A DNA stretch of 64,000 nt from Clostridium sp. CAG:354_28_25 (lineage in GTDB: Bacteria > Bacillota > Clostridia > TANB77 > CAG-508). Location: NCBI GenBank assembly GCA_001915925.1, contig MNRL01000017.1, positions 2,780-66,779 of the forward strand, in the 5' to 3' direction. Made by a program: the position numbers and the translations under genes. This document shows, piece by piece, positions 15,411 through 46,997 of this stretch (position 1 is the first letter of the stretch; each line of letters starts with the position of its first letter). A model generated the notes under the pieces. The model made no database searches and was not told the DNA's origin. It saw nothing but the letters and a program-made list of their open reading frames with translations.

Positions 15411-15438
15411 GGGATTTTGGAGACATTCCTAGAATCCC
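15411..15438. repeat. GGGATTT-palindromic terminator-associated repeat, copy 1 (gggattttggagacattcctagaatccc)
   Basis: Inverted-repeat ends GGGATT/AATCCC. Followed by a T(10) tract. Confidence 0.7.
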
Positions 15439-15456
15439 TATTTTTTTTTCGCAGTC

Positions 15457-15483
15457 GGGATTTGGGGACGTTCCTAGAATCCC
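15457..15483. repeat. GGGATTT-palindromic repeat, copy 2 (gggatttggggacgttcctagaatccc)
   Basis: Near-identical to copy 1 and followed by a T tract. Lies between the convergent SPFH and nifS genes. Confidence 0.7.
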
Positions 15484-15543
15484 ATTTTTTATATATTAAA
15501 AGAGAAAGTACAAAACTACTTTCTCTTTTTTCTGATATATTTT

Positions 15544-16692
15544 TTAATACCTTTCTGTTCTTAGGTTTACAACTATTTTTTCTAATTCATCTACAAAATA
15601 ATCTATATCTTCTTTTGTGTTTTCCTTGCCTAATGTTATTCTTAATGCACTACTTGCGATGTCTTCGCTTAGCCCCATTGCAAGCAATACATGTGATGGT
15701 TGTGACAGTCCACTACTACAAGCAGAACCGCTAGAAGTACAAATCCCTTTCTTCGCTAATAGTTTTACTAAATCTTTACCATTTACATACAAAAAAGAAA
15801 TATTTATATTCCCTAGTAATCTACTATTTAAATCACCATTTATTCTTATATATGGTATTCTATTTTTTATTTGTTCTATACAATAATTTCGTAAATTTAA
15901 TAACTTTTCGTTATTTTGCATAACATTGTCATTAGCTATCTCAATTGCCTTACCTAGTCCAACAATACCTGCTACATTTTCAGTTCCTGCTCTTTTATCG
16001 TTTTCTTGATGTCCGCCATTTTGTAATTGTATAAAATCTATACTATCTCTTACATATAAAGCTCCTACCCCTTTTGGCCCATAGAACTTATGAGCAGACA
16101 TTGATAATAAATCTATCCCCATTTCTTTCACATCTATTTTTATATTTCCCACTGCTTGAACTGCATCTGTATGAAATATTGCATTGTTACTGTGGACAAT
16201 TCTAGAAATTTCTTTTATAGGTTCTATAGTTCCTACTTCGTTGTTTGCAAACATAATTGATACTAAAATAGTTTTTGAATTAATACTATTTTTTAATTCT
16301 TCTAAATCTATGAATCCATTTTTATCAACATTTAAATAGGTTACCCTAAATCCCTCTTTTTCTAGTTGCCTACAAGTATTTAAAACTGCTGGATGCTCTA
16401 TTCTGCTTGTAATAATGTGATTTCCATTTTGTCTGTGTGCTCTTACAACACCCTTAATTGCTAAATTATCACTTTCGCTACCACAAGAGGTAAAATATAT
16501 CTCGTTTGGTTTGGCATTTATTGCTTTTGCTACATTTACCCTTGCTATATTTATTGCTTCCTTGGATTTATACCCAAGCTCATATAATGATGAAGCATTA
16601 CCATAATTTTCACAAAAATATGGTTCCATTGCCTCTTTTACTTCTGGTGCGACTGCAGTTGTAGCTGCATGGTCAAAATATATTGTTTTCAT
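15544..16692 (-). CDS. nifS: cysteine desulfurase (NifS/IscS family, PLP-dependent)
   Basis: 382 aa with the PLP lysine region SMSAHKFYGPKGVGALYV and active-site Cys region SSGSACSS. Confidence 0.85.
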   Translation of the reverse strand: MKTIYFDHAATTAVAPEVKEAMEPYFCENYGNASSLYELGYKSKEAINIARVNVAKAINAKPNEIYFTSCGSESDNLAIKGVVRAHRQNGNHIITSRIEHPAVLNTCRQLEKEGFRVTYLNVDKNGFIDLEELKNSINSKTILVSIMFANNEVGTIEPIKEISRIVHSNNAIFHTDAVQAVGNIKIDVKEMGIDLLSMSAHKFYGPKGVGALYVRDSIDFIQLQNGGHQENDKRAGTENVAGIVGLGKAIEIANDNVMQNNEKLLNLRNYCIEQIKNRIPYIRINGDLNSRLLGNINISFLYVNGKDLVKLLAKKGICTSSGSACSSGLSQPSHVLLAMGLSEDIASSALRITLGKENTKEDIDYFVDELEKIVVNLRTERY

Positions 16693-16785
16693 ATAACATT
16701 ACCTCTCTTATATAATATTATATGAAATATTTTCTTTTTATTTGATAAAAATTTTTCATTAAGCAAATTTTTTTATACTTAAAAA

Positions 16786-16812
16786 GGGATTTAAAGAACG
16801 TCCCTAAATCCC
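16786..16812. repeat. GGGATTT-palindromic repeat, copy 3 (gggatttaaagaacgtccctaaatccc)
   Basis: Same family, flanked by an A tract. Confidence 0.65.
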
Positions 16813-16823
16813 GAATCAAAAAA

Positions 16824-16874
16824 GGGATTCTAGAAATGTCCCTAAATCCATCCTAGGAACATCCCCAAAATCCC
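16824..16874. repeat. GGGATTT-palindromic repeat, copies 4-5 (gggattctagaaatgtccctaaatcca tcctaggaacatccccaaaatccc)
   Basis: One copy in each orientation, followed by a T(7) tract. Positioned just downstream of the PPIase gene. Confidence 0.6.
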
Positions 16875-16879
16875 TTTTT

Positions 16880-17644
16880 TTAATTACTCATTCCGCCATA
16901 TAATTGTTGAATATAAGAATTATAATCAAATGGTGTTACTGTTTCTGGTACTCCATAGTCTACTCCAAAAGTATCTACTCTTACACTCTTTATTACTGGT
17001 GGATTAACTGGTGTACTTGCTTCTGAATCTGATGAGTCTTCTGATGTTGTTACTTCTGTTTCATTTAATTTATCTAGTACATCCATTCCCTCTATAACTT
17101 TTCCAAATGCTGCATAATAACCATTTAAGCTTGCATTATCGCCTGTCATTATAAAGAACTGTGAACCTGCAGAGTTATAACCTTCTTCATATAATCCCAT
17201 TTGGCTATAATCTGATCTTGCCATAGATATTACACCTTTTTCATGTCTTAAAGTATTTTTATTAAATCCGTTTTGTACAAATTCACCTTTTATAGCATAA
17301 GTCTCAGTAGTTGAACCATCATCTTTTATGGCTGATAATGTTGGAGCTCCTGAACCTGTTCCATCTTTATCTCCACCTTGTACCATAAAGTCTTTTACTA
17401 TTCTATGGAATGTTAATCCATCATAAAATCCTCTATTAGCTAAAGTAATAAAGTTAGCTACTGTATTTGGAGCTTGATCTGGGTATAATTCTATTTTCAT
17501 TGTACCTATACCTTCTATTTCCATTGTTGCAACTGGATTTTGCTTTGTAAAAGTCGCCTTTTGATATATTGTATAACCTACTAATCCTATTAATACAATT
17601 ACTAATATAATTGCTATAATCATAATTATTCTTTTTGTTTTCAT
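16880..17644 (-). CDS. peptidyl-prolyl cis-trans isomerase, cyclophilin type, membrane-anchored
   Basis: 254 aa with an N-terminal TM and cyclophilin motifs FHRIVKDFMVQGGD and SQFFIMTGD. Confidence 0.85.
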   Translation of the reverse strand: MKTKRIIMIIAIILVIVLIGLVGYTIYQKATFTKQNPVATMEIEGIGTMKIELYPDQAPNTVANFITLANRGFYDGLTFHRIVKDFMVQGGDKDGTGSGAPTLSAIKDDGSTTETYAIKGEFVQNGFNKNTLRHEKGVISMARSDYSQMGLYEEGYNSAGSQFFIMTGDNASLNGYYAAFGKVIEGMDVLDKLNETEVTTSEDSSDSEASTPVNPPVIKSVRVDTFGVDYGVPETVTPFDYNSYIQQLYGGMSN

Positions 17645-17659
17645 TCGTTATCCTCCTAC

Positions 17660-18736
17660 TTAAATTAAAGCATTATCAAAAACAAATTGTTCTTGCATTC
17701 TCTTTAATGATTGTTTTATTGTTTTGGCTCTTACTTCTCCTATTCCTTCTACCTCGTCAAGCTCTGGAATATCTGCTGCCAAAATGTGTTGAAAAGATTT
17801 AAAAGATTTTACTAAATTTTCTACTATGTTATTAGGTACTCTTGGGATTTTGGTTAATATCCTATATCCTCTTGTATAAACTCCCACTTCGTCATAATTA
17901 TCAAAATTTTCGTACCCTAAAATTTTTGCTATTGAAGATGCTTTTAAAAGCTCTTCGTAAGGTAATGCAATTATTTCTTCTAATGCTTCATCTTCTGTTT
18001 TATTTGTTCCTTTTCCTAGATAATCTTTTATAATTAAAAGTTCTTCTCGTTCTAAGCCACCAACTAATTCCTCTAATTGCATACTTATAAGTCTACCATC
18101 TTGTCCTAATTCTGAAATTCCTCTTTGTACTTCATCTACAATTTTCATAACCATTTCTGCTCTTTGTATTGCATTTATTACATTATCTAAAGTAACGATA
18201 TCATTAAATTCGTATTCATTTAGTACATTTAATTTGCTATCGAATACTTTTTTGTATTTTTCTAATGTTTGCAATGCTTGATTTGTTCTATTTAAAATTG
18301 TTGACGAATCTTGTATTGTATACCTTAGATTTCCTTTAAATACAGTAATTATATTTCTTCTTTGCGAAATACTAATTACTAAAGCTCCTGTTTGTTTTGC
18401 TGTTCTTTCAGCTGTTCTATGACGTGTTCCAGTTTCTTTAGTTGGAATCTCTGGTGATGGAATTAGCTGTGCATTTGCATATAATATTCTTTTTAAGTCT
18501 GTACTTAAAACTATTGCACCATCCATTTTAGCAAGTTCATATAATTTAGATGATGTATATTCTTCATCTATAAAAAAACCTCCATCTACTATGTCTAAAA
18601 CTTCCTTAGTATCAGAAAATACTAGTAATGCTCCAGTTTTTGCTTTTAAAATATTATCTAGTCCTTCTCTTATTGGTGTTCCAGGTGAAATTAACTTTAG
18701 TATGTCTGTAACTTCATCTTTTTTGCTGATTCTCAC
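17660..18736 (-). CDS. disA: DNA integrity scanning protein DisA (diadenylate cyclase)
   Basis: 358 aa with an N-terminal DAC domain (DGAIVLS, RHRTAERTAKQTGALVISISQ), a linker and a C-terminal HhH domain. Adjacent to radA as in other Firmicutes. Confidence 0.9.
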   Translation of the reverse strand: MRISKKDEVTDILKLISPGTPIREGLDNILKAKTGALLVFSDTKEVLDIVDGGFFIDEEYTSSKLYELAKMDGAIVLSTDLKRILYANAQLIPSPEIPTKETGTRHRTAERTAKQTGALVISISQRRNIITVFKGNLRYTIQDSSTILNRTNQALQTLEKYKKVFDSKLNVLNEYEFNDIVTLDNVINAIQRAEMVMKIVDEVQRGISELGQDGRLISMQLEELVGGLEREELLIIKDYLGKGTNKTEDEALEEIIALPYEELLKASSIAKILGYENFDNYDEVGVYTRGYRILTKIPRVPNNIVENLVKSFKSFQHILAADIPELDEVEGIGEVRAKTIKQSLKRMQEQFVFDNALI

Positions 18737-18771
18737 TTGTTACCAACCCTTTCTGCCTTCCACCCTATGAA

Positions 18772-20130
18772 CTATCGTAGTCCAATCGCTTTCATGGCTT
18801 CGTTAATATTTTTCACACCAATTATATCCAATTTATATGATTCTTTCAATAGTTTTTTGTTATTTTCTGGAATTATACATTTTTTAAATCCTAATCTTTC
18901 TGCCTCTTTTAGTCTTTTTTCCATCATATTAATTGTACGTACTTCTCCAGTTAGACCTACCTCTCCTAATGCAATTACTCCTTTAGGAATACTTACATTC
19001 TTAAAGCTTGATGCAGTAGCTAAAATTATTCCTAAGTCTAGGGCAGGCTCGTTTACCTTAAGACCCCCTACAACATTTAAATAAACGTCTTGATTTCCTA
19101 ACATAAATCCTGCTTTTTTCTCCATTACTGCTACTAGCAATGTCAACCTGTTATAATCTATTCCATTTGCAGTTCTTCTTGGCAAGCCAAATACACTTTG
19201 AGTAACTAGCGCTTGTAATTCTACTAATAATGGTCTCGTTCCTTCTACTGTTGCAACAACAACTGAGCCAGATGGATTATCTTCTCTTTCAGAAATTAAA
19301 ATTGATGATGGATTTGTTATTTCTACCATTCCTTTTTCTTGCATCTCGAACATTCCAACTTCATTAGTAGAACCAAACCTATTTTTTACTCCTCTTATCA
19401 TTCTATAAGAAAAATATCTTTCACCTTCTATGTATAGAACTGTATCTACCATATGCTCCAAAACTCTTGGACCTGCTATATTACCATCTTTTGTAACATG
19501 TCCGATAATTATAGTTGTAATCTTTCTAGATTTACAAATTTTCATTATTCTACTTGTTATCTCTCGTACTTGGCTTACACTTCCTGGAGCAGAAGATATA
19601 TCTTCTGAATACATAGTTTGCATAGAATCTATTATTACTAATTTTGGATTTAATTCTTCTATGTTTTGGTCGATAATATCTATATCTGTCTCTCCTAAAA
19701 ACAGAATATCATCATTTTTGATATTTAATCTATCTGCTCTTAATTTTATTTGTTCTGCAGACTCCTCCCCAGAAACATATAAAACTTTTCCTTCCCCTTT
19801 AACCTTATCACACAGTTGTAAAATTAAAGTAGATTTTCCTATTCCAGGCTCTCCACCTACTAATACTAAAGAACCTTTAACTAATCCTCCACCTAACACT
19901 CTATCTAGTTCTGCATACCCTGTAGAAGTTCTTTGCGCATCTTGCCCAACAAAACTATTTAATGGCTTTGGTGCTTCTTGAATTTTCTTTTCTCTTTTTC
20001 CACTTTCTACTTTTGTAGAAAGTTTTTCCTCAAAAAATGTATTCCATGAATTACAAGCTGGACATTTTCCCATCCATTTTGCAGATTCATAACCACATTC
20101 ATTACATACAAAAATTGTTTTTGCTTTCAT
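18772..20130 (-). CDS. radA: DNA repair protein RadA/Sms
   Basis: 452 aa with an N-terminal C4 zinc finger (CNECGYESAKWMGKCPAC), Walker A GEPGIGKST, the KNRFG motif and a Lon-like C-terminal domain. Confidence 0.92.
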   Translation of the reverse strand: MKAKTIFVCNECGYESAKWMGKCPACNSWNTFFEEKLSTKVESGKREKKIQEAPKPLNSFVGQDAQRTSTGYAELDRVLGGGLVKGSLVLVGGEPGIGKSTLILQLCDKVKGEGKVLYVSGEESAEQIKLRADRLNIKNDDILFLGETDIDIIDQNIEELNPKLVIIDSMQTMYSEDISSAPGSVSQVREITSRIMKICKSRKITTIIIGHVTKDGNIAGPRVLEHMVDTVLYIEGERYFSYRMIRGVKNRFGSTNEVGMFEMQEKGMVEITNPSSILISEREDNPSGSVVVATVEGTRPLLVELQALVTQSVFGLPRRTANGIDYNRLTLLVAVMEKKAGFMLGNQDVYLNVVGGLKVNEPALDLGIILATASSFKNVSIPKGVIALGEVGLTGEVRTINMMEKRLKEAERLGFKKCIIPENNKKLLKESYKLDIIGVKNINEAMKAIGLR

Positions 20131-20172
20131 ATTGTCCCTTCTTTATAAACTCTTGCACTGTATTTCTTATCT

Positions 20173-22137
20173 TTAGTTTTTGTTTAACAATTCATCTAGT
20201 CCTAATGATAATACAAACATTGCATGTGACCAACCTAAACCAATCACCCATTTAGATTTCATTTGTTCATTATCTATTTGTTCTGCTAACAAGCCTAAAG
20301 GTGTAGCTGTGTCTATTACGAATTTTAAACATTCATTAGCTTCGTTTATAGCTCCTATTTTTTTATAATATATATACATCCACAAAGTTGCTATTGGCCA
20401 TGGATTTTTTCCACCCATATAACCATCATTTTCAAATCTTAAATATCCACCTGTATATGTTCTTAATGTCAAATTAATTTTTTGCACTGTATTTTGTATT
20501 ATTTTATCATTTGGATCAAATACATTAAATGGTGTAATTGCTCCCATTATACTAATATCCACATTACTATCTTTTGTATTTCTTACTAATATATTCTGAT
20601 TTTTATCGCACAGATTTTCTAATATATATTTTTTAATTAATTCTTTATATTCTGCTAATTCCTTAAAATCTTCTGGTAGTTTAAATTTTTTATTATCTTT
20701 TTGTAATTCCTTATATATTAACTCCATTGCTCCAAATGCAGCATATATTGCTGATAATGAATATAAATGAACTCCTTCATTCATTTCCCACAAATCATAA
20801 CTTACATGTTTATATATCTGGCTTCTATCTAAATAGCTGTACTTAGTATCTATTTCAGCTTCTTTTTCTTCGCCTCTGCTTAGCAAGTGATCCATATATT
20901 TTTTTAAGAACTCAATTGCATTTTCACACATAGTTAAATTATCTTTTAATAAATTTATATCTCTTTCTTTAAGTCTAAATTCTTTTATTTTAAAGTGTTG
21001 GTATAATCCTGCCACTACACTTCCTGTTTCATCAATTTGGTATCCCCAACAAGGAGCAAGTCTTCCATCTGTATAAAAACGTTGTTCCCACATTCCGTTT
21101 TGACTTTGGGTTTTCCTTAAGAAAATATTATAGAAATTATCTGCATCTTTATACATGCCTACCATATCTAATGCTTGGGAAATAGTAACAGCATCTCTTG
21201 GCCAACAATATGCATATCTACCACATAAATCTTTTTCCTCGTCTACTTCTAATGCTGCAATTATTCCTCCGGTTTCTTCATTTACTAGCAAAGGAAATAA
21301 CAGAATCGTTCTTCTTAAAATCTTTTGTATCTTTGCATTATATATTTCTCCATAATCTTTTACTTTAAGTACATCATGTTTTTTTACATACTTGCGCCAA
21401 TATGCTTTAGTATCCATCATTAATTTTAATGTATCATATTGTTTAATTTGGTCTATTTCTTTTATTAAATCATCTAATACATCAACTTTATAATTTTTAT
21501 TTATATATATGTATACATTAAACTCTTTGGTTTCTCCTGGTCTTAATACTCCAATATCATATGCTATTGCAGAATGATTAGACATTGCTATATAATCTTT
21601 ATCACTTATTATTCCAGAAGAAATACTTTCTTCTACATTATTTAATTGATAACTATATATTGGCATATTAGAAAATGTTGTCATTGCAAAATCATGACTA
21701 TATTGAATCATAGCATTGTCACATATTCTAACTCCAACCATATTATTTAAATTTGAAAACAATTTTGAATCTATTAAAAATTTAACATTCAAATCTATTT
21801 TATTATAATTTGTAAATGTATATCTTCTTATTACTACATCCTTCTTCATTGGAATAAAATCTTCTTGTTTCATATTAAGTTTAAAATATGTATTTTCTAT
21901 TTCCGTGTTTAATACATTTGTATCTGTAGAATAGTATTGGTTATATACATTATTTATATCATCATGAAGTCTAATTAGCGCAGAATCATTTATTTTTACA
22001 CCAGTTTCATAATAATCTATAAACTGCCTATAATCTGCTGTTGGATAGCTTAATCTTAATAGCTCTCCTTTTTCTGATACACTAGCAATCATTTTTCTAT
22101 TTCCTATGAAAGCATCATTTAAGTATTTTCTTTTCAT
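20173..22137 (-). CDS. glycoside hydrolase family 15-like protein (glucoamylase/trehalase-like (alpha/alpha)6 barrel)
   Basis: 654 aa. The N-terminus AFIGNRKMIASVSEKGELLRLSYP resembles the bacterial GH15 N-domain start (xIGNGRxAALVxxDGSIDWLC). The C-terminal half is a helical barrel. Confidence 0.5.
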   Translation of the reverse strand: MKRKYLNDAFIGNRKMIASVSEKGELLRLSYPTADYRQFIDYYETGVKINDSALIRLHDDINNVYNQYYSTDTNVLNTEIENTYFKLNMKQEDFIPMKKDVVIRRYTFTNYNKIDLNVKFLIDSKLFSNLNNMVGVRICDNAMIQYSHDFAMTTFSNMPIYSYQLNNVEESISSGIISDKDYIAMSNHSAIAYDIGVLRPGETKEFNVYIYINKNYKVDVLDDLIKEIDQIKQYDTLKLMMDTKAYWRKYVKKHDVLKVKDYGEIYNAKIQKILRRTILLFPLLVNEETGGIIAALEVDEEKDLCGRYAYCWPRDAVTISQALDMVGMYKDADNFYNIFLRKTQSQNGMWEQRFYTDGRLAPCWGYQIDETGSVVAGLYQHFKIKEFRLKERDINLLKDNLTMCENAIEFLKKYMDHLLSRGEEKEAEIDTKYSYLDRSQIYKHVSYDLWEMNEGVHLYSLSAIYAAFGAMELIYKELQKDNKKFKLPEDFKELAEYKELIKKYILENLCDKNQNILVRNTKDSNVDISIMGAITPFNVFDPNDKIIQNTVQKINLTLRTYTGGYLRFENDGYMGGKNPWPIATLWMYIYYKKIGAINEANECLKFVIDTATPLGLLAEQIDNEQMKSKWVIGLGWSHAMFVLSLGLDELLNKN

Positions 22138-28462: not shown

Positions 28463-28466
28463 TTGT

Positions 28467-32550: not shown

Positions 32551-34699
32551 ATTTTCTTTCTATTTCATATTTAGACATCTTTATAACAGTTGGTCTACCA
32601 TGTGGACAAGTAAATGGATTTGTTAATTTTAATAATTCATCCATTAAACTTTCTACCTCTTCTTTTGTTAAAACCATATGCGCTTTTACAGCTGCTTTAC
32701 ATGCAATTGTTGCTAAAAATTTATTTTCAATTTCTTGTTTTGCAGTTCTAGAAACAGAATTTATTTCATCTAAAGTTTCTAAGAATAAATCTCTTGTATT
32801 AAGATCTAAACATATACTTGGTGTTCCAGAAATTTTTATAGTATTGTCTCCGAATTCTTCTATTATAAATCCTGCTTTTCTAAATAGTTCCATATTTTCT
32901 TTAGCAATGTCCATTTCTTTATGTGTTAAAGTTATTATGTCTGGCAAAATCATTAATTGTGAATCTTTTTCTTCTTCTGCATAGAAATTCTTTTTTACCT
33001 TTTCAAACATAATTCTTTCATGTGCAGCATGTTGATCCATTATATACATTTCATCATCCATCTCAAAGATAATGTATGTATTAAATACTATTCCTATAAA
33101 TTTATATTGTTGTTTATATTTATAGTCATCTTCTATATTATCAAATAAAGTTGTATTGTCTTCTTTGGTAATTGCTTGTGGTTCTTGTTTTTGATTATCA
33201 TCTTCTATTTTTGGTGGTTTTGTACCAAAAATTTTAAAATACATTTCGTCAAAACTTTCTTTTTTCTCTTCTTCTTTTATATTATTATTTGTTAAATTTT
33301 CAATTTGTTTGTCTATCTCTTTACTAGCTTCTTCTAATTCTTTTATGTCTAATTTTTTATCTTCTTTAGGCTCAGTTACCACTTCTTCTGTTTTAACACT
33401 ATTATTAGTATTTTCTACTTTTGGTTCTGTTTCTACATGTGTAGTTTCTTCTACTGGATTAGTTGTAACTATTGTTTTTGTTTCTTCTGTCTTATTAATT
33501 TCTTCTTTTTCCTCTTCTTCCATTTTAAATGGATTATAATTTATATCTTTCTTACTCTTTTCTAAATCTTCTTTTATTTTTCTTTGTAATTCTAATAAAC
33601 TATTAAACCTATTATTATTAATTTCTGCTCCTATTGTACTTCTGTTTCCAAATAATGAAGTAGTTCCTAAATTATTTTTTTCTTCTCCTCTATCTGAATT
33701 TTTTATTAAATCATTTTTTAATAGTGTATCATTTACTGCATGATATACAGACTTAAATATTTTTGACTCGTCAGAAAATCTAACTTCCAATTTTGCAGGA
33801 TGCACATTTACATCTACTTTTGAAGGATCCATTTCTATATTTAAAATCGAAAATGCATATTTTCCTATTGTAAGTAGTCCTTTAAATCCTTTTTCTATTG
33901 CTCCTGATAAAGTTTTGTCTTTTACATATCTATTGTTTACAAAGAATAATTGGTTTGACCTATTTGATCTTGCTATTTCTGGTTTTCCTATAACACCTGA
34001 AATATATATATCTTCGTATGTATAATCTACTTTTAACACATTTTCCGCAATATTTTTACCGTATATACCATATATAACTGCTTGGATATCTCCATTTCCA
34101 GCTGTTTGTATAATAGTTTTTCCTGTATTAATTAGTTTGAATGCAATGTTTGGATTTACTAATGCAAGTCTTGTAATAGCATCTTCTATATAACCTGATT
34201 CTGTAAAATCTTTCTTTAAAAATTTATATCTAACTGGTGTATTAAAGAATAAATTTCTTACTGTTATTGATGTTCCTGTTTTACATCCAATTTCTTCGTG
34301 TTCTAATACTTTTCCTGCTTCTACTACTAGTCTTGTTCCTATTTCATCATTTGCTGTCTTTGTTATTAGTTCTACATTTGCAACAGCTGCAATACTTGCT
34401 AAAGCCTCGCCTCTAAAACCCATAGAGTGGATTGTCTCTATATCGCTTGCTTGTCTTATTTTACTTGTTGCATGTCTTTCGAACGCAATTTCTGTATCAT
34501 CTTTTGCAATTCCTTTACCATTATCAGTTATTCGTATAAAAGATATTCCTCCATTTTTTATTTCTACAGTTATAGCTGTTGCACCTGCATCTATTGAGTT
34601 TTCCACCATTTCTTTTACTACAGATGCTGGTCTTTCTATAACTTCACCTGCTGCTATTTTATTTATTGTTAATTCATCTAATAAAACAATATTACCCAT
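32537..34699 (-). CDS. mutL: DNA mismatch repair protein MutL
   Basis: 720 aa with an N-terminal GHKL ATPase (AAGEVIERPASVVKEMVENSIDAGAT), a variable linker and a C-terminal dimerisation/endonuclease domain (DQHAAHERI). Confidence 0.92.
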   Translation of the reverse strand: MGNIVLLDELTINKIAAGEVIERPASVVKEMVENSIDAGATAITVEIKNGGISFIRITDNGKGIAKDDTEIAFERHATSKIRQASDIETIHSMGFRGEALASIAAVANVELITKTANDEIGTRLVVEAGKVLEHEEIGCKTGTSITVRNLFFNTPVRYKFLKKDFTESGYIEDAITRLALVNPNIAFKLINTGKTIIQTAGNGDIQAVIYGIYGKNIAENVLKVDYTYEDIYISGVIGKPEIARSNRSNQLFFVNNRYVKDKTLSGAIEKGFKGLLTIGKYAFSILNIEMDPSKVDVNVHPAKLEVRFSDESKIFKSVYHAVNDTLLKNDLIKNSDRGEEKNNLGTTSLFGNRSTIGAEINNNRFNSLLELQRKIKEDLEKSKKDINYNPFKMEEEEKEEINKTEETKTIVTTNPVEETTHVETEPKVENTNNSVKTEEVVTEPKEDKKLDIKELEEASKEIDKQIENLTNNNIKEEEKKESFDEMYFKIFGTKPPKIEDDNQKQEPQAITKEDNTTLFDNIEDDYKYKQQYKFIGIVFNTYIIFEMDDEMYIMDQHAAHERIMFEKVKKNFYAEEEKDSQLMILPDIITLTHKEMDIAKENMELFRKAGFIIEEFGDNTIKISGTPSICLDLNTRDLFLETLDEINSVSRTAKQEIENKFLATIACKAAVKAHMVLTKEEVESLMDELLKLTNPFTCPHGRPTVIKMSKYEIERKFERK

Positions 34700-34844
34700 A
34701 TATTTTTTCTCCTTTTCCTATATACACTACCATTCTGCCAGAAATTATATCATTATTTTTTTAGTAACACAATAGATATATTCCGAATAAGATATATCAT
34801 ACTAAGGAAAAACTTAAGGTTAAAAGAAAAGGGAGGTAATATTT

Positions 34845-34967
34845 ATGTGTTGTAATAATGATTTATTATGGTTCATCATTCTTTTCTTAATACTTTTCTG
34901 CGGTTGTGGAAATAGTAGAAATTCTGGATGTGGATGTGACACACCATGTGACCCATGCGGTTGCTAA
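34845..34967 (+). CDS. YjcZ-like small Cys/Gly-rich sporulation peptide (40 aa: MCCNNDLLWFIILFLILFCGCGNSRNSGCGCDTPCDPCGC)
   Basis: Not in the track. A strong RBS GGGAGG sits 8 nt upstream. Central hydrophobic stretch flanked by Cys/Gly-rich ends. It is a paralogue of the adjacent ORF. Confidence 0.5.
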   Translation: MCCNNDLLWFIILFLILFCGCGNSRNSGCGCDTPCDPCGC

Positions 34968-35030
34968 CAAGCTTGCTGTTTTAATATTTTTTAACAGTTA
35001 TACTTATGCAATTTGAAAGGAGGGATTGAT

Positions 35031-35153
35031 ATGCCAGAAAATAGAGGCTGTGGATGTGGTTTCGGTTTTGGAGATGATTGCTGCACATGGATAATACTAT
35101 TAATTATAATATTCTGCTTATGTGGTGGAAATAGAAGAAACGGATGTTGCTAG
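35031..35153 (+). CDS. YjcZ-like small Cys/Gly-rich sporulation peptide (40 aa: MPENRGCGCGFGFGDDCCTWIILLIIIFCLCGGNRRNGCC)
   Basis: RBS AAAGGAGGG sits 7 nt upstream. Same length and architecture as the upstream paralogue. Confidence 0.5.
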   Translation: MPENRGCGCGFGFGDDCCTWIILLIIIFCLCGGNRRNGCC

Positions 35154-35162
35154 TTTAAATAC

Positions 35163-35206
35163 GAAACAAAACAGGCTGAGAAATTATCCTCAGCCTGTTT
35201 TGTTTT
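35163..35206. terminator. strong bidirectional intrinsic terminator
   Basis: GAAACAAAACAGGCTGAG-AAATTATC-CTCAGCCTGTTTTGTTTT: an 18-bp perfect stem with flanking A and T runs. Confidence 0.8.
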
Positions 35207-35342
35207 GTGCGACCTCTCCTTTATGCCAATAACTGGTTCGAGCAGACTAGAAGTTCCTAGCCTACTCGAACACATGTTATTTAGAAATAATCCAACCTAA
35301 TGTAACTTTTTTCAATTATTTGGCTATTTTTAGCCTAAAAAA

Positions 35343-35370
35343 GGGATTTAAGGAACGTCCCCAAAATCCC
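35343..35370. repeat. GGGATTT-palindromic repeat, copy 6 (gggatttaaggaacgtccccaaaatccc) immediately downstream of groEL
   Basis: Flanked by A(6) and a T-rich tract. Acts as the groEL terminator hairpin. Confidence 0.7.
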
Positions 35371-35385
35371 TTTTCACTTTTTTTA

Positions 35386-37331
<1,946 letters not shown>

Positions 37332-37357
37332 TACACATTACCTCCTATATATGATTA

Positions 37358-37414
37358 TTAGCACTCTTTCTTTGTGACTGCTAATAATTTATACCTTTTT
37401 TTAGCACTTGTCAA
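37358..37414 (-). promoter_or_regulatory. groESL promoter region with CIRCE (HrcA operator) inverted repeat and -35 TTGACA
   Basis: TTAGCACTC-N9-GACTGCTAA at 37358-37384, with one mismatch to the consensus TTAGCACTC-N9-GAGTGCTAA. The minus strand carries TTGACA (37414-37409) upstream. Confidence 0.8.
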
Positions 37415-37596
37415 GTATGTTTGCTAATTTTCACATAAAATTCACATTTCTGTTTTTAAGCAAGTTTTCATTATTAATTTTATTAATAAGCTCACTTTTT
37501 TATAACCAATTTTTATATTTAATAAAGACTAGAATTTGCTCTAGCCTTTATCTTATTTTCTTTTACTTTACCTCATTTTCCAAACAGGAACGTCTT

Positions 37597-39198
37597 CTAA
37601 TCAATTTCTTTTGCTGCTTTTATTAGTCCGACAAATACTGGTGCTGGTCTATTTGGTCTTGATTTTAGTTCTGGATGGAATTGAACACCAATAAAAAATG
37701 GATGTTTCTTATATTCTACTATTTCTACTAATTCTCCATTTGGTGAAATTCCAGAACATATTAAGCCTGCATTTTCTAGCATTTCTTTATATTCATTGTT
37801 ATACTCAAAGCGATGTCTATGTCTTTCGAAAATATTTTCTTTCTCATATAATTCTTTTACTTTAGTATTTTCCTTTAATAAACAAGGATATTCACCAAGT
37901 CTCATTGTTCCACCTTTTTTCTTAACTTCCTTTTGTTCATCCATTATATGTATAACTTTATTTTTAGCATTTTCATTAAACTCTTCTGAATTCACATCTT
38001 CTAACTTTAATACATTTCTTGCAAATTCTACAACTGCCATCTGCATTCCCAAACAAATTCCTAAAAATGGAATATTGTTTTCTCTAACATATTCAATTGC
38101 TGTTATCATTCCTTCTATTCCTCTATTTCCAAATCCTCCCGGAACTACAATTCCGTCATATCCTTTTAATTTTTCTTCTACATTATCTTTATTTAATTTT
38201 TCTGAATCTATTAAATCTACTTTTACTTTTACATTATTTGCATAACCTGCATGTGTTAAACTTTCTATTACTGATATATATGAATCTTCTAATTTAGTAT
38301 ATTTTCCTACAATTGCAATTTTTACTGTTTTATCTTTTATATTTTCTATCTTATTTATCATTTCTTGCCATTCAGAATTGTCTGGAATATAGTTATCTAA
38401 TCTTAGTTGGTTGCAAACAGCCCTTCCTAATCCTTCTCTTTCTAGCATAAGTGGTACTTCATATAAACATTTTACTGTTTTATTTTGGATTACATTTTCT
38501 TTTCTTACATTACAGAACAACGCTAGTTTTTCTCTTATAGAATCTGGTATATCTATTTCACTTCTGCATACTAATATGTTCGGTTTTATTCCATAAGATT
38601 GTAATTCTTTAACCGAATGTTGAGTTGGTTTTGATTTTATCTCGTTAGAGCCACTTATATATGGAAGTAGTGTAACATGAATATATAGCACATCTTCTGG
38701 ATTTTTTTCTAAGCCCACTTGTCTTATTGCTTCTATTATAGAAAGACCCTCTATATCTCCAACAGTCCCTCCTATTTCTGTAATTACTATATCAGTATCT
38801 GTATTTTCGAAACTATATATCTTTTCCTTTATTTTATTTGTTACATGTGGGATAACTTGTACTGTTTTTCCCAAATATTCTCCTTCTCTTTCTTTCTCTA
38901 AAACTTCTAAATAAATTTTTCCCATAGTAATACTAGAATCTTTAGTTAAATTTTCATCTATAAATCTTTCATAATGTCCTAAATCCAAATCTGTTTCTGC
39001 TCCATCATCTGTAACAAATACTTCTCCATGTTCATATGGGCTCATTGTTCCCGGATCTACATTTAAATATGGGTCGAATTTCTGAATAGTTACCTTATAT
39101 CCTCTATTTTTCAAAAGCCTACCTAATGATGCTGCTGTTATACCTTTTCCAAGTCCAGAAACAACTCCTCCTGTTACAAAAATATACTTAGTATTCAT
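37597..39198 (-). CDS. pyrG: CTP synthase PyrG
   Basis: Start chosen at [19 protein letters not shown] with RBS AAAGGGG. Has a C-terminal glutamine amidotransferase domain (GICLGMQ). Confidence 0.95.
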
Positions 39199-41300: not shown

Positions 41301-41307
41301 ATTTATG

Positions 41308-41334
41308 GGGATTTGGGGACGGTCCTAAAATCCC
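41308..41334. repeat. GGGATTT-palindromic repeat, copy 7 (gggatttggggacggtcctaaaatccc) immediately after the deoD stop
   Basis: Followed by TTTTTG. Confidence 0.7.
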
Positions 41335-41402: not shown

Positions 41403-41444
41403 AAAAAACAGCCATACCTAATCTAGGTTTATGACTGTTTTTTC
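41403..41444. terminator. bidirectional hairpin terminator
   Basis: AAAAAACAGCCATA ... TATGACTGTTTTTT. Confidence 0.5.
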
Positions 41445-41472
41445 ATTGCTTTTGCATCGAGCTTTTGAAAAG

Positions 41473-41832: not shown

Positions 41833-41834
41833 CC

Positions 41835-42239
41835 TTAGCAATAACAAGTATCCACTTTTCTAAATATGCTTTCATATTGCACCATTTCCTTATACTTTAC
41901 TGCATAAATAATCTGTGGCAATAGAAAATATATTGCAGAAAAGGTCATTGCAATAAAATATAACGCCGCCACTAAACCAACTGCAACTCCGGAAGCCAAA
42001 ATAAATGCTCCAATTATTGCCAAATTAAAAAGTATCATCCCTGTTATCATTTTCTTTTTGGATGGCTTTTCATCTTCTTTATTGGCCTGCATCTCCTTCT
42101 CCATTACCTCAACCATATTCATAAGACTTGCCACAAGCGTTCCGTCTTTTTGGATTGCTACTTTCGCTGCGATTCCTGTTTCTGGTGATTTTACTACTAG
42201 TAAATCTCCCACTTTGTAACCTAACCGCTCTCTTCTCAT
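41835..42239 (-). CDS. hypothetical small membrane protein (N-terminal soluble beta-rich domain plus 2 TM)
   Basis: RBS GAAAGGAGAAAGAATA-ATG (MRRERLGYKVGDLLVVKSPE...). The track ORF starts further upstream at 42308. Confidence 0.35.
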   Translation of the reverse strand: MRRERLGYKVGDLLVVKSPETGIAAKVAIQKDGTLVASLMNMVEVMEKEMQANKEDEKPSKKKMITGMILFNLAIIGAFILASGVAVGLVAALYFIAMTFSAIYFLLPQIIYAVKYKEMVQYESIFRKVDTCYC

Positions 42240-42349
42240 TATTCTTTCTCCTTTCAACAGATTGTAAACATAATTATTATACCATTTTTTCCATATATTG
42301 TCTAACAAAAAACTGCTCTCTATACTTCACGAAAGCAGTTATTATTATA

Positions 42350-44149
42350 TTATTGTAATTCTTGTTTTATTTTTATTGCTAAATCTCTATTTATTCCTTT
42401 TACTGTCATTAATTCTTCAGGTGATGCATTTTTAATATTACTAACAGTTTTAAATCTTTTTAATAATAAATTTCGCTTTACCTCACCTATTCCAGAAATT
42501 TTATCTAAAGCCGATTCAGTCATTTCTTTCTCACGTAATTTTTTATGATAAGAAATTGCAGTATCATGAACTGTATCTTGGAATTTTGTAATTAAGTTTA
42601 ATAATTCCTCTGATATTTCTATTTCATTTCTATCTTCGTCCATTAAAGCTCTGGTTCTATGTTTATCATTTTTTACCATTCCAAAAATTTTTATATCTAC
42701 ATTTAGTTTATCAATTACTCTTCTTGCTGCTCTAATTTGGGTAATTCCCCCATCTACAAATATTACATCAGGTAAATTTCCAAATCCTGTACTAGTTCCA
42801 TTTAGTGAATGTTTTAATCTTCTTTCTATTACTTCTTCCATACATCTTGGATCATCTTGACCATATACTGTTTTTATCTTAAATCTTCTAGATAGATTCT
42901 TCTTTATAATACCATTCTGCATTACACACATTCCTGCAACCATATTTGTTCCTGAAATATTAGATATATCATAACATTCAATTTTTCTTGGTATTTTATC
43001 CATCTTTAATACATCTTTTAATTCTAACAATAGACTATTTTTATCTTCAAATTTATTTTTTAAAGTAACTTCTGCATTATTTTCTGCCATTTCCACAAAA
43101 CGTAGTTTTTCTCCTTTTTGCGGAGTTTTTATTTCTACCTTATGATTTGCAATATTAGAAAGCCATTCTTCTATCGTTTCTTTATCTTCTGGCTCATATC
43201 TCATCATAATTTTATTTGGTAAATTAGGATTATCCATATAATATTGTTTTATAAACCCTGATAAAATCTCGCTGTCTGACATATCAACTAAATCTTGGAA
43301 GAAATAATATTCTCTGCCAACCATTTTGCTTCCTCTTACAAAAAATATCTCTACACAAACTTCTAAATCATTTTTTGCAATTCCTATAACATCTATATTA
43401 TTTTCTGATATATTTGATACCCTTTGTTTTTCCGAAATTCTTTCGATTGCAACCATTTTATCTCTTAAATATGCCGCCTTTTCAAAATCTAGTTTTTTAG
43501 ATGCCTCTTCCATTTGCAATCCAAGTTCTTTTATTATTTTACTTGTCTTTCCATCTAATAAATCTATTATCTCATCAATCTGTTTTCTATAGTCTTCTTT
43601 AGAAATATATCCCACACATGGAGCAAAACATTTTTTTATATGATAATTTAGGCATGGTCTTTGTGTAGATTTAAAATTTCTACATTGTCTAATTTTATAC
43701 TTGCTTTTTATAAAATCAACCATTTCTTTTGCAGCACCTGGATTTGCATATGGACCAAAATATTTTGATCCATCATTTATTAATCTTCTTGTTATAATTA
43801 CATTTGGAAAATCTGATTTTATATCAATTTTTATATATGGATATGTTTTATCATCTTTTAGCAATACATTAAATTTAGGTCTATATTTTTTAATTAAATT
43901 GCATTCTAAAATTAATGCTTCTGCTTCATTATTTACAACTATATATTCAAAATAATCAACTAAAGACACCATCTTTTTTATACGTTCGGTTTTATTTGTT
44001 TTTCTAAAATATGATGTAACTCTTCTTTTTAGTGAAATAGCTTTACCAACATATATAATATTATTATTTTTATCATGCATAAGATATACACCTGGTTTAG
44101 ATGGCAACTTTTTAATCTCCTCTTCTATATTAAACTTATTATTCTGCAT
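42350..44149 (-). CDS. uvrC: excinuclease ABC subunit UvrC
   Basis: N-terminal GIY-YIG domain (PGVYLMHDKNNNIIYVGKA), RNase H-like endonuclease domain and C-terminal HhH. The start at 44149 (MQNNKF...) has RBS AGGAGAGG. The track start is 44182. Confidence 0.92.
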   Translation of the reverse strand: MQNNKFNIEEEIKKLPSKPGVYLMHDKNNNIIYVGKAISLKRRVTSYFRKTNKTERIKKMVSLVDYFEYIVVNNEAEALILECNLIKKYRPKFNVLLKDDKTYPYIKIDIKSDFPNVIITRRLINDGSKYFGPYANPGAAKEMVDFIKSKYKIRQCRNFKSTQRPCLNYHIKKCFAPCVGYISKEDYRKQIDEIIDLLDGKTSKIIKELGLQMEEASKKLDFEKAAYLRDKMVAIERISEKQRVSNISENNIDVIGIAKNDLEVCVEIFFVRGSKMVGREYYFFQDLVDMSDSEILSGFIKQYYMDNPNLPNKIMMRYEPEDKETIEEWLSNIANHKVEIKTPQKGEKLRFVEMAENNAEVTLKNKFEDKNSLLLELKDVLKMDKIPRKIECYDISNISGTNMVAGMCVMQNGIIKKNLSRRFKIKTVYGQDDPRCMEEVIERRLKHSLNGTSTGFGNLPDVIFVDGGITQIRAARRVIDKLNVDIKIFGMVKNDKHRTRALMDEDRNEIEISEELLNLITKFQDTVHDTAISYHKKLREKEMTESALDKISGIGEVKRNLLLKRFKTVSNIKNASPEELMTVKGINRDLAIKIKQELQ

Positions 44150-44299
44150 TTTAATACCTCTCCTATTTATTAACTTTTTCATATTTTGTTAATAAATGAT
44201 TATCATACAATATATTATACCATCGTTTAATTCTTGTTTCAATATTCATACAATGCAGAAATACACCTCATCACTGAGGTGCATCCCTACTAAATCCGG

Positions 44300-44755
44300 T
44301 CACATATTGTCATAGAAATCTGAGCAAATCCAAAAATCATCTTTGTTTTCACTAAGCTTTAAAAACAATCTATCTAACTCTTCATAAATCTGTTTGCCAT
44401 CCATGAAAAGTGCTGTTTCTGCTACCCTAATGCCATGCTCTGCCCTTATGTTGTTGGCGAAAAGACGGATTAATACACCTTTATTAAAATAAAAGGTAAT
44501 TTCCAATACATTTTTACCAAAAGTCTTGGCTATATGTCCCTTTCTTAATCCTTCTTTTAGGGCATTAAACAAAGCTGAGTAATAATCTTCATCAGATTCG
44601 TCTTTGGGTTTCAGAAACTCAACCATCAATTCCTGAACCTTTTCCTCGCTTCCTACGATACACATATGTGTGGACTCTTTAAGTTCTAAAACTTTAAAAT
44701 CAAACTCTCTTCCTTTGTAACTAATCCGGTAGAAATCATCCATCCTTACTATCAT
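44300..44755 (-). CDS. hypothetical cytoplasmic protein (151 aa), with local GC above the surrounding sequence
   Basis: RBS GGGAGGAAAAAGT-ATG (MIVRMDDFYRISYKG...). No recognisable motif. A hairpin at 44264-44281 lies downstream. Confidence 0.4.
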   Translation of the reverse strand: MIVRMDDFYRISYKGREFDFKVLELKESTHMCIVGSEEKVQELMVEFLKPKDESDEDYYSALFNALKEGLRKGHIAKTFGKNVLEITFYFNKGVLIRLFANNIRAEHGIRVAETALFMDGKQIYEELDRLFLKLSENKDDFWICSDFYDNM

Positions 44756-44961
44756 ACTTTTTCCTCCCATTCAGGATTGAATAACCTAAAACTATTTGTT
44801 ACACTTGTTTATTTTATACTCTTTTCTTAAATTTAGCAATACCTATAATTTTATTAAGGACTTGATACTTTTTCGATTTTATTATAATATAATACCGTAA
44901 GCCAAAAAGTTTACAAGATAAAAATATTTGAAAGGAGGAAATTTTATATTATATAAATGAC

Positions 44962-45125
44962 ATAAAAAAGCGCCAGGACACATTTTGTGTTGACGAGGTC
45001 AGAGCTAATCGAAATTTTCGGCGGGTACTCTGTGGTATGCTACTACCATAAATATTAGCAAAACCTACTAGTGATAGTAGAACAAATCTAATTGTGTAGC
45101 TATATTGTTACTTTTTGGCTATTTT
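44962..45125 (+). ncRNA. glmS ribozyme: glmS ribozyme (GlcN6P-responsive self-cleaving riboswitch) in the glmS 5' UTR
   Basis: Conserved core elements AGCGCCAGGAC and GUUGACGAGG, plus AUCGAAAUUUUCGGCGG, sit directly upstream of glmS (ATG 45148). Confidence 0.8.
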
Positions 45126-45147
45126 TTAATAGGAGGTACAATATATT

Positions 45148-46971
45148 ATGTGTGGAATTATTGGTTATATAGGAACCAAAAAAGCCAAACCAATTTTAAT
45201 TAATGGTTTACTTAGATTAGAATACAGAGGTTATGACTCTGCAGGAATTGCCACAGTAGAAAAAGATGGCATAAAAGTTATAAAAGAAAAAGGAAGAATT
45301 GCAAATTTAGATGCAATGGATGGAATAAATGATTTAGAAGGTACTATTGGTATTGGTCATACTAGATGGGCAACACATGGAAAACCTTCTGCTATTAATT
45401 CTCATCCACATTATGATAATGAGAAATTATTTGCGGTTGTGCATAATGGAATAATAGAAAATTATCATGACTTAAGAAAATTTTTGGAAGACAATGGATA
45501 CACATTCCTTTCTGATACTGATACAGAGGTTATTCCAAATTTAATTAATTTTTATTACAAAAAAGAAAATGATTTCTTAAAAGCTGTTAAACTAGCTTGT
45601 GATGAGTTAAAAGGTAGTTTTGCTTTAGAAATCTTATGCAAATATTATCCAGACAATATGATTGTCGTAAGACAAGATAGCCCTTTAGTTATTGGTAGAG
45701 GTTTAGATGAAAATTATATTTCTTCTGATATTCCTGCTATTTTATCATTTACTAAAGACTTCTATTTCCTAAATGATAGAGAATTTGCAGTACTATCAAG
45801 AGATAATATAGATTTTTATGATAATGAACTAAACAAAATTGATAAAGTTGTTAAGAGTATTGAATGGAATACTGCATCAGCAGAAAAAGACGGTTATGAT
45901 GACTTCATGTTGAAAGAAATCTATGAACAACCAAATGCGATAAGAGAAACAATTGGTTCAAAATTATCTGAAAGTAAAATCTCTTTTAATGATTTCGAAA
46001 TTAAAAAAGAATTTTTAGAAACTATTAATAGAATATATATTGTTGCATGTGGTACAGCAATGAATGCTGGGCTGGCTACAAAGGCTACTTTTGAAAATTT
46101 CTGTAAAATCCCAACTGAAGTTGATATAGCTTCAGAGTTTAGATACAGAAATCCATTAATAGATGAACATACATTATGTATTTATATTAGCCAATCTGGT
46201 GAGACTGCAGATACAATTGCAGCTTTAAAACTAGCCAAAAGCAAAGGTGCAAAAACTATAGCAGTAGCAAATGTTATTGGTAGCTCTATAACTCGTGAAG
46301 CAGATTACTGCATTTATACACATGCAGGTCCAGAAATTGCTGTTGCTTCTACCAAAGCATATACTTCACAAGTTGTTTTATTAAATATTTTAGCATTATA
46401 TTTTGCAGAAGTTTTAGATAGAATTCCTAGCTCAACAATTGATTCAATGAAAAAAGAGCTTTTGGAATTACCTAAAAAAGCAGAAATAACATTAGGAAAT
46501 GTTGCAGAAGTTAAAAACTTCGCTAATATTGTATATAAAGAAACAGATATGTTCTTTTTAGGTAGAGGTGTAGACTACTATGTAGCATCTGAAGGATCTT
46601 TAAAATTAAAAGAAATTTCATATATTCATTCTGAGAGCTATGCAGCAGGTGAATTAAAACATGGACCTATAGCTTTAATAGAAAATGATGTTACAGTAAT
46701 AGGAATTATTACAAATCCTAATTTGGTTGAAAAAACAATAAGTAATATACAAGAAGTTATTACAAGAGGAGCTAAAACTTTAGTAATTACAAATCAAAAG
46801 ATAAACGAATCACAGTTCTTTAAGGTAATAAACATTCCTGATACAGAACCTTGTTTATCACCAGTTTTATCTATAATACCTTTACAATTACTTGCATATT
46901 ATATTTCAAAAGAAAAAGGATTAGATGTTGATAAACCTAGAAATTTAGCAAAATCTGTAACAGTTGAATAG
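45148..46971 (+). CDS. glmS: glutamine--fructose-6-phosphate aminotransferase GlmS
   Basis: Starts MCGIIGY (Ntn Cys2) and has two SIS domains. 607 aa. Confidence 0.95.
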   Translation: MCGIIGYIGTKKAKPILINGLLRLEYRGYDSAGIATVEKDGIKVIKEKGRIANLDAMDGINDLEGTIGIGHTRWATHGKPSAINSHPHYDNEKLFAVVHNGIIENYHDLRKFLEDNGYTFLSDTDTEVIPNLINFYYKKENDFLKAVKLACDELKGSFALEILCKYYPDNMIVVRQDSPLVIGRGLDENYISSDIPAILSFTKDFYFLNDREFAVLSRDNIDFYDNELNKIDKVVKSIEWNTASAEKDGYDDFMLKEIYEQPNAIRETIGSKLSESKISFNDFEIKKEFLETINRIYIVACGTAMNAGLATKATFENFCKIPTEVDIASEFRYRNPLIDEHTLCIYISQSGETADTIAALKLAKSKGAKTIAVANVIGSSITREADYCIYTHAGPEIAVASTKAYTSQVVLLNILALYFAEVLDRIPSSTIDSMKKELLELPKKAEITLGNVAEVKNFANIVYKETDMFFLGRGVDYYVASEGSLKLKEISYIHSESYAAGELKHGPIALIENDVTVIGIITNPNLVEKTISNIQEVITRGAKTLVITNQKINESQFFKVINIPDTEPCLSPVLSIIPLQLLAYYISKEKGLDVDKPRNLAKSVTVE

Positions 46972-46997
46972 GGATTTGGGGACGTTCCTTTTTTCCC
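46971..46997. repeat. GGGATTT-palindromic repeat, copy 8 (gggatttggggacgttccttttttccc), with a degenerate 3' half, overlapping the glmS stop
   Basis: The same 19-nt 5' half as copies 2 and 7. Confidence 0.6.

Follow-up and report, generated by a model that had tools for sequence, protein, structure and literature searches.

A family of short palindromic repeats, probably of REP/RAYT type, in AT-rich uncultured gut Clostridia

The stretch of DNA analysed here (the window) comprises 64,000 nt of Clostridium sp. CAG:354_28_25, positions 2,780-66,779 of the forward strand of contig MNRL01000017.1 (assembly GCA_001915925.1), and carries eight copies of a palindromic element of 27-29 nt at the 3' ends of genes. 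We consider it very likely, at a probability of about 0.85, that this element is the repetitive extragenic palindromic (REP) family of a REP/RAYT system, RAYT standing for REP-associated tyrosine transposase, in a clade of uncultured gut Clostridia with a G+C content of about 28%. In several related genomes, inverted copies of the element flank a RAYT gene on both sides, an arrangement that is the defining signature of REP/RAYT (Nunvar 2010, PMC2817692; Ton-Hoang 2012, PMC3333891). A previous, sequence-only reading of the window had described the repeats as bidirectional terminators of conserved sequence and had suggested, as one possible origin, a REP element or a miniature inverted-repeat transposable element (MITE) that spreads by copying. 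The bracketed RAYT gene bears out the spread by copying and points to a REP, not a MITE.

The strand reading GGGATTT(T)-GGGGA-CGT-TCCTT-AAATCCC is referred to as A and the complementary strand as B. A covariance model of the element (R1; 27 positions, 12 base pairs, trained on 46 distinct copies) was applied to the entire window with all filters disabled and returned exactly the eight copies recognised previously, at five intergenic sites, where chance would give none, the remainder being noise. Complementary GGGATT/AATCCC ends, previously ascribed to each copy, are exact at five of them (15411, 15457, 16786, 35343 and 41308; pattern GGGATT-N13-21-AATCCC, with no match in 100 shuffles of the window) and less perfect at the other three. 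In agreement with the placement first described, all eight copies are intergenic and start 0-15 nt past the stop codon of SPFH, of a cyclophilin-type peptidyl-prolyl isomerase (PPIase), of groEL, of deoD (purine-nucleoside-phosphorylase-like) or of glmS. R1 strands combined with gene calls show that every copy presents its A strand to the gene ending just upstream. An A tract on one side and a T tract on the other had also been described: the T tract (T5-T9) directly follows seven of the eight copies, the eighth (46971-46997) having its T run inside the element, but the A tract is found on the opposite side only at 35343 and 16874. The copies are the following.

15411-15438 (+): REP copy of the closed, full form, GGGATTTTGGAGACATTCCTAGAATCCC, 12 nt after the SPFH stop and followed by TATTTTTTTTT; exact ends, 34.1 bits (R1 match starting at 15412); flagged as terminator-like; an extra copy relative to the single copy of the sister species.
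15457-15483 (+): full form, GGGATTTGGGGACGTTCCTAGAATCCC, with ATTTTTT after it; makes a head-to-tail pair with the preceding copy; exact ends, 44.9 bits.
16786-16812 (-): full form, GGGATTTAGGGACGTTCTTTAAATCCC, followed by TTTTT; last of three copies 3' of the PPIase gene; exact ends, 43.3 bits.
16824-16850 (-): degenerate copy, GGATTTAGGGACATTTCTAGAATCCC, followed by TTTTTT; 19.5 bits.
16851-16874 (-): truncated unit, GGGATTTTGGGGATGTTCCTAGGAT, 5 nt past the PPIase stop, with an A7 tract before it; 15.5 bits over 16851-16869.
35343-35370 (-): full form, GGGATTTTGGGGACGTTCCTTAAATCCC, followed by TTTTTT, 15 nt past the groEL stop; exact ends, 44.4 bits.
41308-41334 (+): full form, GGGATTTGGGGACGGTCCTAAAATCCC, followed by TTTTT, 7 nt past the deoD-like stop; exact ends, 43.6 bits.
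46971-46997 (+): T-tail variant, GGGATTTGGGGACGTTCCTTTTTTCCC, whose first G completes the TAG stop codon of glmS; 23.9 bits.

The adjoining copies at 16824-16874 can fold together as one long hairpin of roughly 29 bp. The copy at 46971-46997 is not a decayed one; it is a recurrent variant, its 27-mer (…GTTCCTTTTTTCCC) being present in identical form at 17 places in the related loci searched. A further, degenerate partial copy had been suspected at 35250-35285. This sequence is not matched by R1 and belongs to a separate imperfect hairpin, TTCGAGCAGACTAGAAGTTCCTAGCCTACTCGAA (35235-35270), which has only the 8-mer GTTCCTAG in common with the REP.

The consensus of the element is AATA-GGGATTT(T)GGGGACGTTCCTTAAATCCC-TATTTT, or, written as a palindrome, (AATA)GGGATTT-GGGGA-CGT-TCCTT-AAATCCC(TATTTT). 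The core folds into a stem of 12 bp, in which two pairs are G·T wobbles, with a loop of 3 nt, and the AATA/TATT flanks extend it to about 35 nt. Because of the two wobble positions the strands are not equivalent: on the A strand all 12 pairs are contiguous, including two that are G·T in DNA and G·U in RNA, and the B strand has A·C mismatches at both positions. In the family census, for which a seed-based scan was combined with the covariance model, the consensus flanks are AATA before and TATTTT after the core, with T in 91% of copies at position +3. These flanks covary as extensions of the stem (AATA/TATT, AATC/GATT, AACA/TGTT), and pairing at positions -1/+1 reaches 0.69 compared to 0.54±0.04 expected. 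Positions -3 to +1 read ATAG in about half of the copies (A in 60%, T in 56%, A in 65%, then G; G at -3 in only 12%), and as the flank is symmetric there is no clear one-sided tag. One lineage, that of protein P0013, carries the form GGGATTGAGGGACGGTCCT(T/C)AAAATCCC, in which a G·T pair is replaced by A-T in 4/4 copies and a T-A pair by G-C in one.

The 27-mer is only one form of the element. The basic module is a half-unit of about 20 nt, GGGATTTGGGGACGTTCC(TC). Half-units line up head to tail in polar arrays, which terminate with a T-tail unit (…TTTTTTCCC; 46971 is an example), a closed unit or both. Among 52 pairs of neighbouring units, 40 are in tandem, 12 tail-to-tail and none head-to-head, and tandem units are spaced by about 21 nt. 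The T-tail form was also considered as a promoter: no -10/-35 boxes at fixed distance were seen by eye in the flanks, and flank logos display the T run only.

A 19-mer from the element was searched against species-representative genomes, and at least 106 stretches matched. The element recurs in at least 21 species-level metagenome-assembled genomes (MAGs) of the 28% G+C clade, all uncultured gut bacteria labelled Clostridium sp. or Clostridia bacterium, so that the motif is indeed present in relatives, as the sequence-only reading had proposed to check; among the stretches listed, two matches outside these MAGs are chance hits. Sampled loci are designated by L and a number. As they were ascertained by the 19-mer, the per-genome consensus is biased toward it; gene context is not. 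In the loci of 21 related genomes, which are about 88% coding, 158 of 173 clusters lie clearly outside open reading frames (ORFs), the position that had been predicted for most copies, and the remaining 15 overlap crude longest-ORF calls, either at the margin of an ORF or within ORFs that are short and doubtful. Eight copies in 64 kb, about one per 8 kb, extrapolate to a few hundred per genome, and single MAGs hold at least dozens of exact 19-mer matches. Only one viral contig of IMG/VR carries the 19-mer, and a phage origin was rejected. Rfam holds no model for the element: searches of the window at the gathering threshold, and of two sub-regions at the E-value threshold, gave only a glmS ribozyme and sub-threshold hairpin noise. 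In the papers searched, no description of this REP family was found, the core 11-mer giving irrelevant matches only.

The gene that carries our interpretation was found by screening candidate ORFs for copies of the element on both sides, which singled out L046:273-1055, of 261 aa, in a related genome. Its product matches Pfam Y1_Tnp with 40.1 bits (cut-off 23) and, as best family, the NCBIfam REP-associated tyrosine transposase (REP_Tyr_transpos) with 66.7 bits; the IS200 equivalog model gives 17 bits only. All 30 homologues examined keep the His-x-His motif and the Tyr of YIHNNPVKAG unchanged, and the profile of these homologues matches a single PDB sequence, 4er8 TnpA-REP. An AlphaFold model (pLDDT 82.5) finds its best Foldseek match in 4er8_A (E 3e-7, TM 0.73), followed by the ISDra2, IS608 and IS200 transposases. 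The protein measures 256-261 aa in related genomes, and its gene is bracketed by inverted copies at seven loci representing six protein clusters.

L046: 87-113 (+) upstream, 1074-1100 (-) downstream.
L065: 5717-5778 (+) upstream, 6727-6751 (-) downstream.
L111, L117 and L118: 2810-2836 (+) upstream, 3812-3838 (-) downstream.
L115: 2870-2896 (+) upstream, 4341-4367 (-) downstream.
L113: 2460-2486 (+) upstream, 4754-4815 (-) downstream.

RAYT orthologues with no more than 53-61% identity share their neighbours (holB-PSP1-ferredoxin upstream, a small ORF and pyruvate:ferredoxin oxidoreductase (PFOR) genes downstream), which is the behaviour of a resident gene passed on vertically in single copy, not that of an insertion sequence. 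The sampled loci, about 800 kb in total, contain at most one RAYT per genome.

The small, conserved ORF, of 104-108 aa, lies directly 3' of the RAYT gene (L111 3855-4181, L115 3963-4277, L046 1124-1420), and its ribosome-binding site abuts the REP copy on that side of the RAYT gene. Between two species, this ORF shares 91% identity, compared to about 59% for their RAYTs, and it gives weak winged helix-turn-helix (HTH) matches, below the family cut-offs (PadR, AraR_C, cas_HTH). A second, divergent RAYT, 35% identical to the first, is encoded in L050 (1966-2721, minus strand) and is bracketed (1700-2900) by a different palindrome, GTCCCCACTGGTTCCGGGTTTnnnTGGGGAC, in tandem on one side; this motif also adjoins a GGGATTT-type REP in L033. 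The L050 gene and GTCCCCACTGGTTCCGGGTTTnnnTGGGGAC may form a second REP/RAYT pair in the same clade and, because this palindrome is a different one, would make the pairing of a RAYT with a palindrome general in the clade.

Comparison between species gives a view of how the arrays change. The element sequence is conserved between species whose groEL genes are only 79% identical, and number of units per site varies. Two copies are present in the SPFH/nifS gap of the window compared to one in the sister species, and three compared to one in the PPIase/nifS gap (the sisters being 93.6% and 90.5% identical). Arrays of other species pairs likewise differ in their number of whole units. Among species with 85-97% identity, site occupancy is conserved, most sites being filled in both with a different number of units, and clean empty sites are very few. 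At another site, the element is found in one species where the other has an unrelated terminator. The groES-groEL spacer measures 26 nt in the window and about 130-150 nt, with two B-oriented units, in the more distant L078 and L094; in these two species the 3' end of groEL carries unrelated ordinary terminators instead of the element. The second of the two units (L078 2810-2940, L094 5915-6060) adjoins the ribosome-binding site of groEL, directly in L078 and a few bases upstream of it in L094. Turnover is thus seen in comparisons of species and not of strains. For some metagenome contigs of the window's own species (L127 1-124 and several short ones), the end lies within or beside one of the nifS-flanking REP clusters, which suggests that the repeats fragment short-read assemblies.

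Several observations weigh against a REP/RAYT assignment. There is no RAYT gene within the 64-kb window, the gene being known from relatives and not from a proven genome of the window's species, and its score of 66.7 bits lies below the equivalog cut-off of 80 of the NCBIfam model. Clusters consist mostly of direct repeats and include no head-to-head pairs, unlike the alternating layout of bacterial interspersed mosaic elements (BIMEs) and REPINs (inverted REP doublets). In the family census the element lacks the GTAG or CGTC tag that most described REP families have, in a survey that does not mention Firmicutes (Di Nocera 2013, PMC3733652). Covariation inside the element is not significant, being no better than in shuffles, the copies being too alike and the alignment prone to indels. 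Finally, both nifS-flanking clusters keep the same copy number and identical spacing in nine metagenome occurrences of the window's species, which give no sign of current activity. In structure, position and genetics the system agrees with a REP/RAYT, with an absent GTAG/CGTC tag and direct arrays as its variants.

In a REP/RAYT system of this kind, the transposase would bind the hairpin in single-stranded DNA, cleave nearby and join the strands, and such action would seed new copies in intergenic DNA. Local amplification, as proposed through cleavage and strand transfer for the BIMEs of E. coli (Ton-Hoang 2012, PMC3333891), would then generate polar head-to-tail arrays in which open half-units are followed by a T-tail unit and then by a closed unit. 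The two wobble positions could serve RAYT binding, as does the stem mismatch that the E. coli RAYT needs in order to bind (Ton-Hoang 2012, PMC3333891). Copies would persist where they are harmless, that is nearly always outside genes and mostly just past a stop codon, some of them supplying the TAG. In the A orientation, the transcript would fold into a hairpin of 12 bp (about -15 to -19 kcal/mol) and, with a U tract, probably an intrinsic terminator acting in one direction or a stabiliser of the 3' end. In the B orientation, with two A·C mismatches and no U tract, copies would be tolerated in 5' leaders and inside operons.

The orientation of copies across the family bears on this role. Clusters of the full form follow a co-oriented gene in 77 cases (median 16 nt from the stop, some supplying its TAG) and stand against the Shine-Dalgarno sequence of a divergent gene in 28; between co-directional genes, 48 are in A and 21 in B orientation. 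RNA folding, which the sequence-only reading had proposed as a check, gives stable hairpins that are stronger by 4-22 kcal/mol in A than in B orientation, single hairpins of the window ranging from -15.7 to -18.8 kcal/mol.

groEL site: A -18.8, B -14.4 kcal/mol.
deoD site: A -15.7, B -10.8 kcal/mol.
PPIase triple: A -50.9, B -28.7 kcal/mol.
SPFH pair: A -30.9, B -22.4 kcal/mol.

The frequency of a T4 tract following the A strand varied with gene arrangement.

Convergent sites: 62%.
Next gene more than 80 nt away: 57%.
Next gene at most 80 nt away: 28%.
Background: 10%.

After the B strand, a T4 tract is found at 8% of convergent sites, about the background of 10%. T tracts are thus one-sided, and the element is therefore not a bidirectional terminator as had been claimed. 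The more general proposal of terminators at 3' ends holds in part: the stronger hairpin faces every upstream stop codon in the window, with a T run directly after seven of the eight copies, but family-wide about a third of the 173 clusters face the other way, touching the Shine-Dalgarno sequence of the next gene or lying inside operons such as groES-groEL. Where the context allows, the hairpin with its T tract looks like a one-way terminator or a 3' stabiliser. Against termination, A copies also occur in very tight intercistronic gaps, mostly without a T tract, and two sites of the window carry an ordinary terminator besides the element (15500-15533, and 47006-47032 after the glmS copy). Selection against the terminator orientation in tight operons was looked for and not seen (8 A and 4 B at spacers of at most 40 nt). 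No bias of orientation with respect to the replication strand was found at convergent (14:14) or divergent (6:6) sites, and a bias of the IS200/IS605 type was rejected on these counts. Termination is likely a secondary, one-directional role of a subset of copies, and it does not explain the sequence conservation of the element.

These data also bear on the view that the repeats are ordinary intrinsic terminators, kept uniform by selection, for instance for a termination factor or an RNA-binding protein reading the hairpin, or by gene conversion, with no transposase involved. A hairpin and T tract placed just past stop codons, with the more stable orientation facing the gene, would be expected of such terminators, and the site occupancy shared by species at 85-97% identity would fit as well. 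However, about a third of the clusters are in the non-terminator orientation, at the next Shine-Dalgarno sequence or inside operons, the half-unit arrays follow no terminator logic, sites with an ordinary terminator carry the element as well, and a RAYT gene bracketed by inverted copies would be unexpected. We regard this explanation as very improbable.

Marginally less can be said for a MITE mobilised by an IS630/Tc1-mariner-like DDE transposase, in which GGGATTT…AAATCCC would be the terminal inverted repeats and TA the duplicated target. The ends are inverted repeats, and TA is the commonest flank on both sides (22/118 copies). A TA…TA pair is equally the product of a longer palindrome, however, and the second commonest pair, TC…GA (also as AATC…GATT), is inverted and not direct, and hence no duplication; the candidate target duplication was discarded in favour of a palindromic extension of the flanks. 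At 27 nt, the element is far below the length of known MITEs, its arrays grow by half-units, and the sole transposase found beside copies is of the Y1/RAYT type, no insertion sequence with the same termini having been seen. Equally hard to sustain is the idea of a site recognised by a regulator that binds DNA or RNA, for instance the small winged-helix-like protein encoded 3' of the RAYT gene, in which case the copies would mark a regulon and not a mobile family: conservation across species with 79% identical groEL genes, a tandem spacing of about 21 nt, equal to two helical turns, and the conserved 104-108 aa ORF with its weak winged-HTH matches would suit it, but the adjacent genes are functionally unrelated housekeeping genes, most copies are found at 3' ends, species differ freely in the number of copies at a site and the HTH matches are all under the family cut-offs.

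Beyond the assignment to REP/RAYT, we tentatively consider a more specific and distinctly less probable proposal, that of a domesticated, long-lived REP/RAYT of a distinct type. It would be characterised by an added C-terminal helical or HTH-like domain of the RAYT, a small conserved partner ORF 3' of its gene, an AT-rich REP without GTAG and growth as polar head-to-tail arrays of half-units, and its repeats might have been co-opted by the host as portable, orientation-dependent modules for termination or operon punctuation. If so, a transposase would help to write the 3' ends of housekeeping genes.

Other features were noted in and around the window. A glmS ribozyme (RF00234, 85.8 bits) is located at 44958-45103 (+), 5' of glmS (45148-46971), the gene whose stop codon is completed by the T-tail copy. 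The mutL-groEL gap of about 690 nt contains two ORFs of 40 aa (34845-34967 and 35031-35153, both +), cysteine-rich and hydrophobic in their middle part (MCCNNDLLWFIILFLILFCGCGNSRNSGCGCDTPCDPCGC and MPENRGCGCGFGFGDDCCTWIILLIIIFCLCGGNRRNGCC), with a hairpin terminator after them at about 35165-35205; gene calls in metagenomes likewise include small genes in this gap, and neither ORF has an NCBIfam match. Locus L004, a metagenome contig of the same species, aligns to window positions 33386-39161, a span about 138 nt longer than L004 itself, and its pyrG product is called shorter (307 aa), a difference that reads as an indel or truncation in that strain.

The REP/RAYT association has been worked out almost entirely in Gammaproteobacteria, where its origin was proposed (PMC2817692). 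RAYTs of Group 1 have been noted in Clostridia, with flanking 16-mers of low abundance, abundant ones being confined to the gammaproteobacterial Groups 2 and 3 (Bertels 2017, PMC5581495). An abundant REP accompanied by a RAYT in conserved synteny, in 20 or more species of uncultured gut bacteria, would extend the idea of a domesticated transposase with its resident repeat to AT-rich genomes of the Firmicutes type. It would also offer a natural test of whether REPs turn into functional terminators, the groES-groEL spacers of L078 and L094 being a case for orientation-dependent read-through. From a practical point of view, the repeats break MAG assemblies (one contig ends within a cluster) and, in microbiome screens, may pass for structured RNAs or terminators.

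Several known systems resemble the clostridial element. With intrinsic terminators it has in common a stem-loop on the sense strand with a U tract just past the stop codon; terminators, however, are diverse in sequence and have no tie to a transposase, whereas many members of this family lack a U tract or face the wrong way. The BOX elements of pneumococci are likewise modular: an internal or 5' module is repeated, and another module stands at the end. They lie between genes, can give rise to RNA hairpins and have modules of 45-60 nt; no cognate transposase is known for them, and they are not known to resemble the clostridial element in sequence. The TnpA proteins of IS200/IS605 and of their palindrome-associated derivatives have the same HUH/Y1 fold (Foldseek ranks 2-30) and recognise subterminal imperfect hairpins in single-stranded DNA. 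In contrast to those insertion sequences, the RAYT described here scores 17 bits with the IS200 model, is not multi-copy, occupies one chromosomal site and is accompanied by repeats without replication-strand bias (14 vs 14).

Closer parallels are found among REPs. In the REPINs of Pseudomonas with their Group 2/3 RAYTs (PMC3116915, PMC5581495), as here, a single RAYT copy is inherited vertically at a syntenic position and its flanking repeat is abundant across the genome, but REPINs are inverted doublets and inverted pairs are a minority here (12/52). Unlike the repeats reported in the survey of Group 1 RAYTs (PMC5581495), the flanking repeat reaches about one per 8 kb (8 copies in the 64-kb window). 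The closest relative is the REP/BIME system of E. coli with RayT (YafM, TnpA-REP; 4ER8). The E. coli host is a gammaproteobacterium and the present one belongs to a Clostridia lineage; the clostridial element is AT-rich, with only five G-C pairs, no GTAG (about half of copies having ATAG) and a T tract in its consensus, its half-units form head-to-tail arrays in place of alternating Y/Z units with linkers, and its RAYT, at 256-261 aa compared to 165 aa for the 4ER8 chain, has an extra helical C-terminal domain of about 110 aa. Both elements are short imperfect extragenic palindromes, often no more than about 15 nt from a stop codon, whose non-Watson-Crick stem positions give the hairpin a polarity and which are amplified locally in tandem. 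Both are associated with a single-copy HUH/Y1 transposase bracketed by inverted copies, and 4ER8 is the best match of the clostridial RAYT in sequence as well as in fold.

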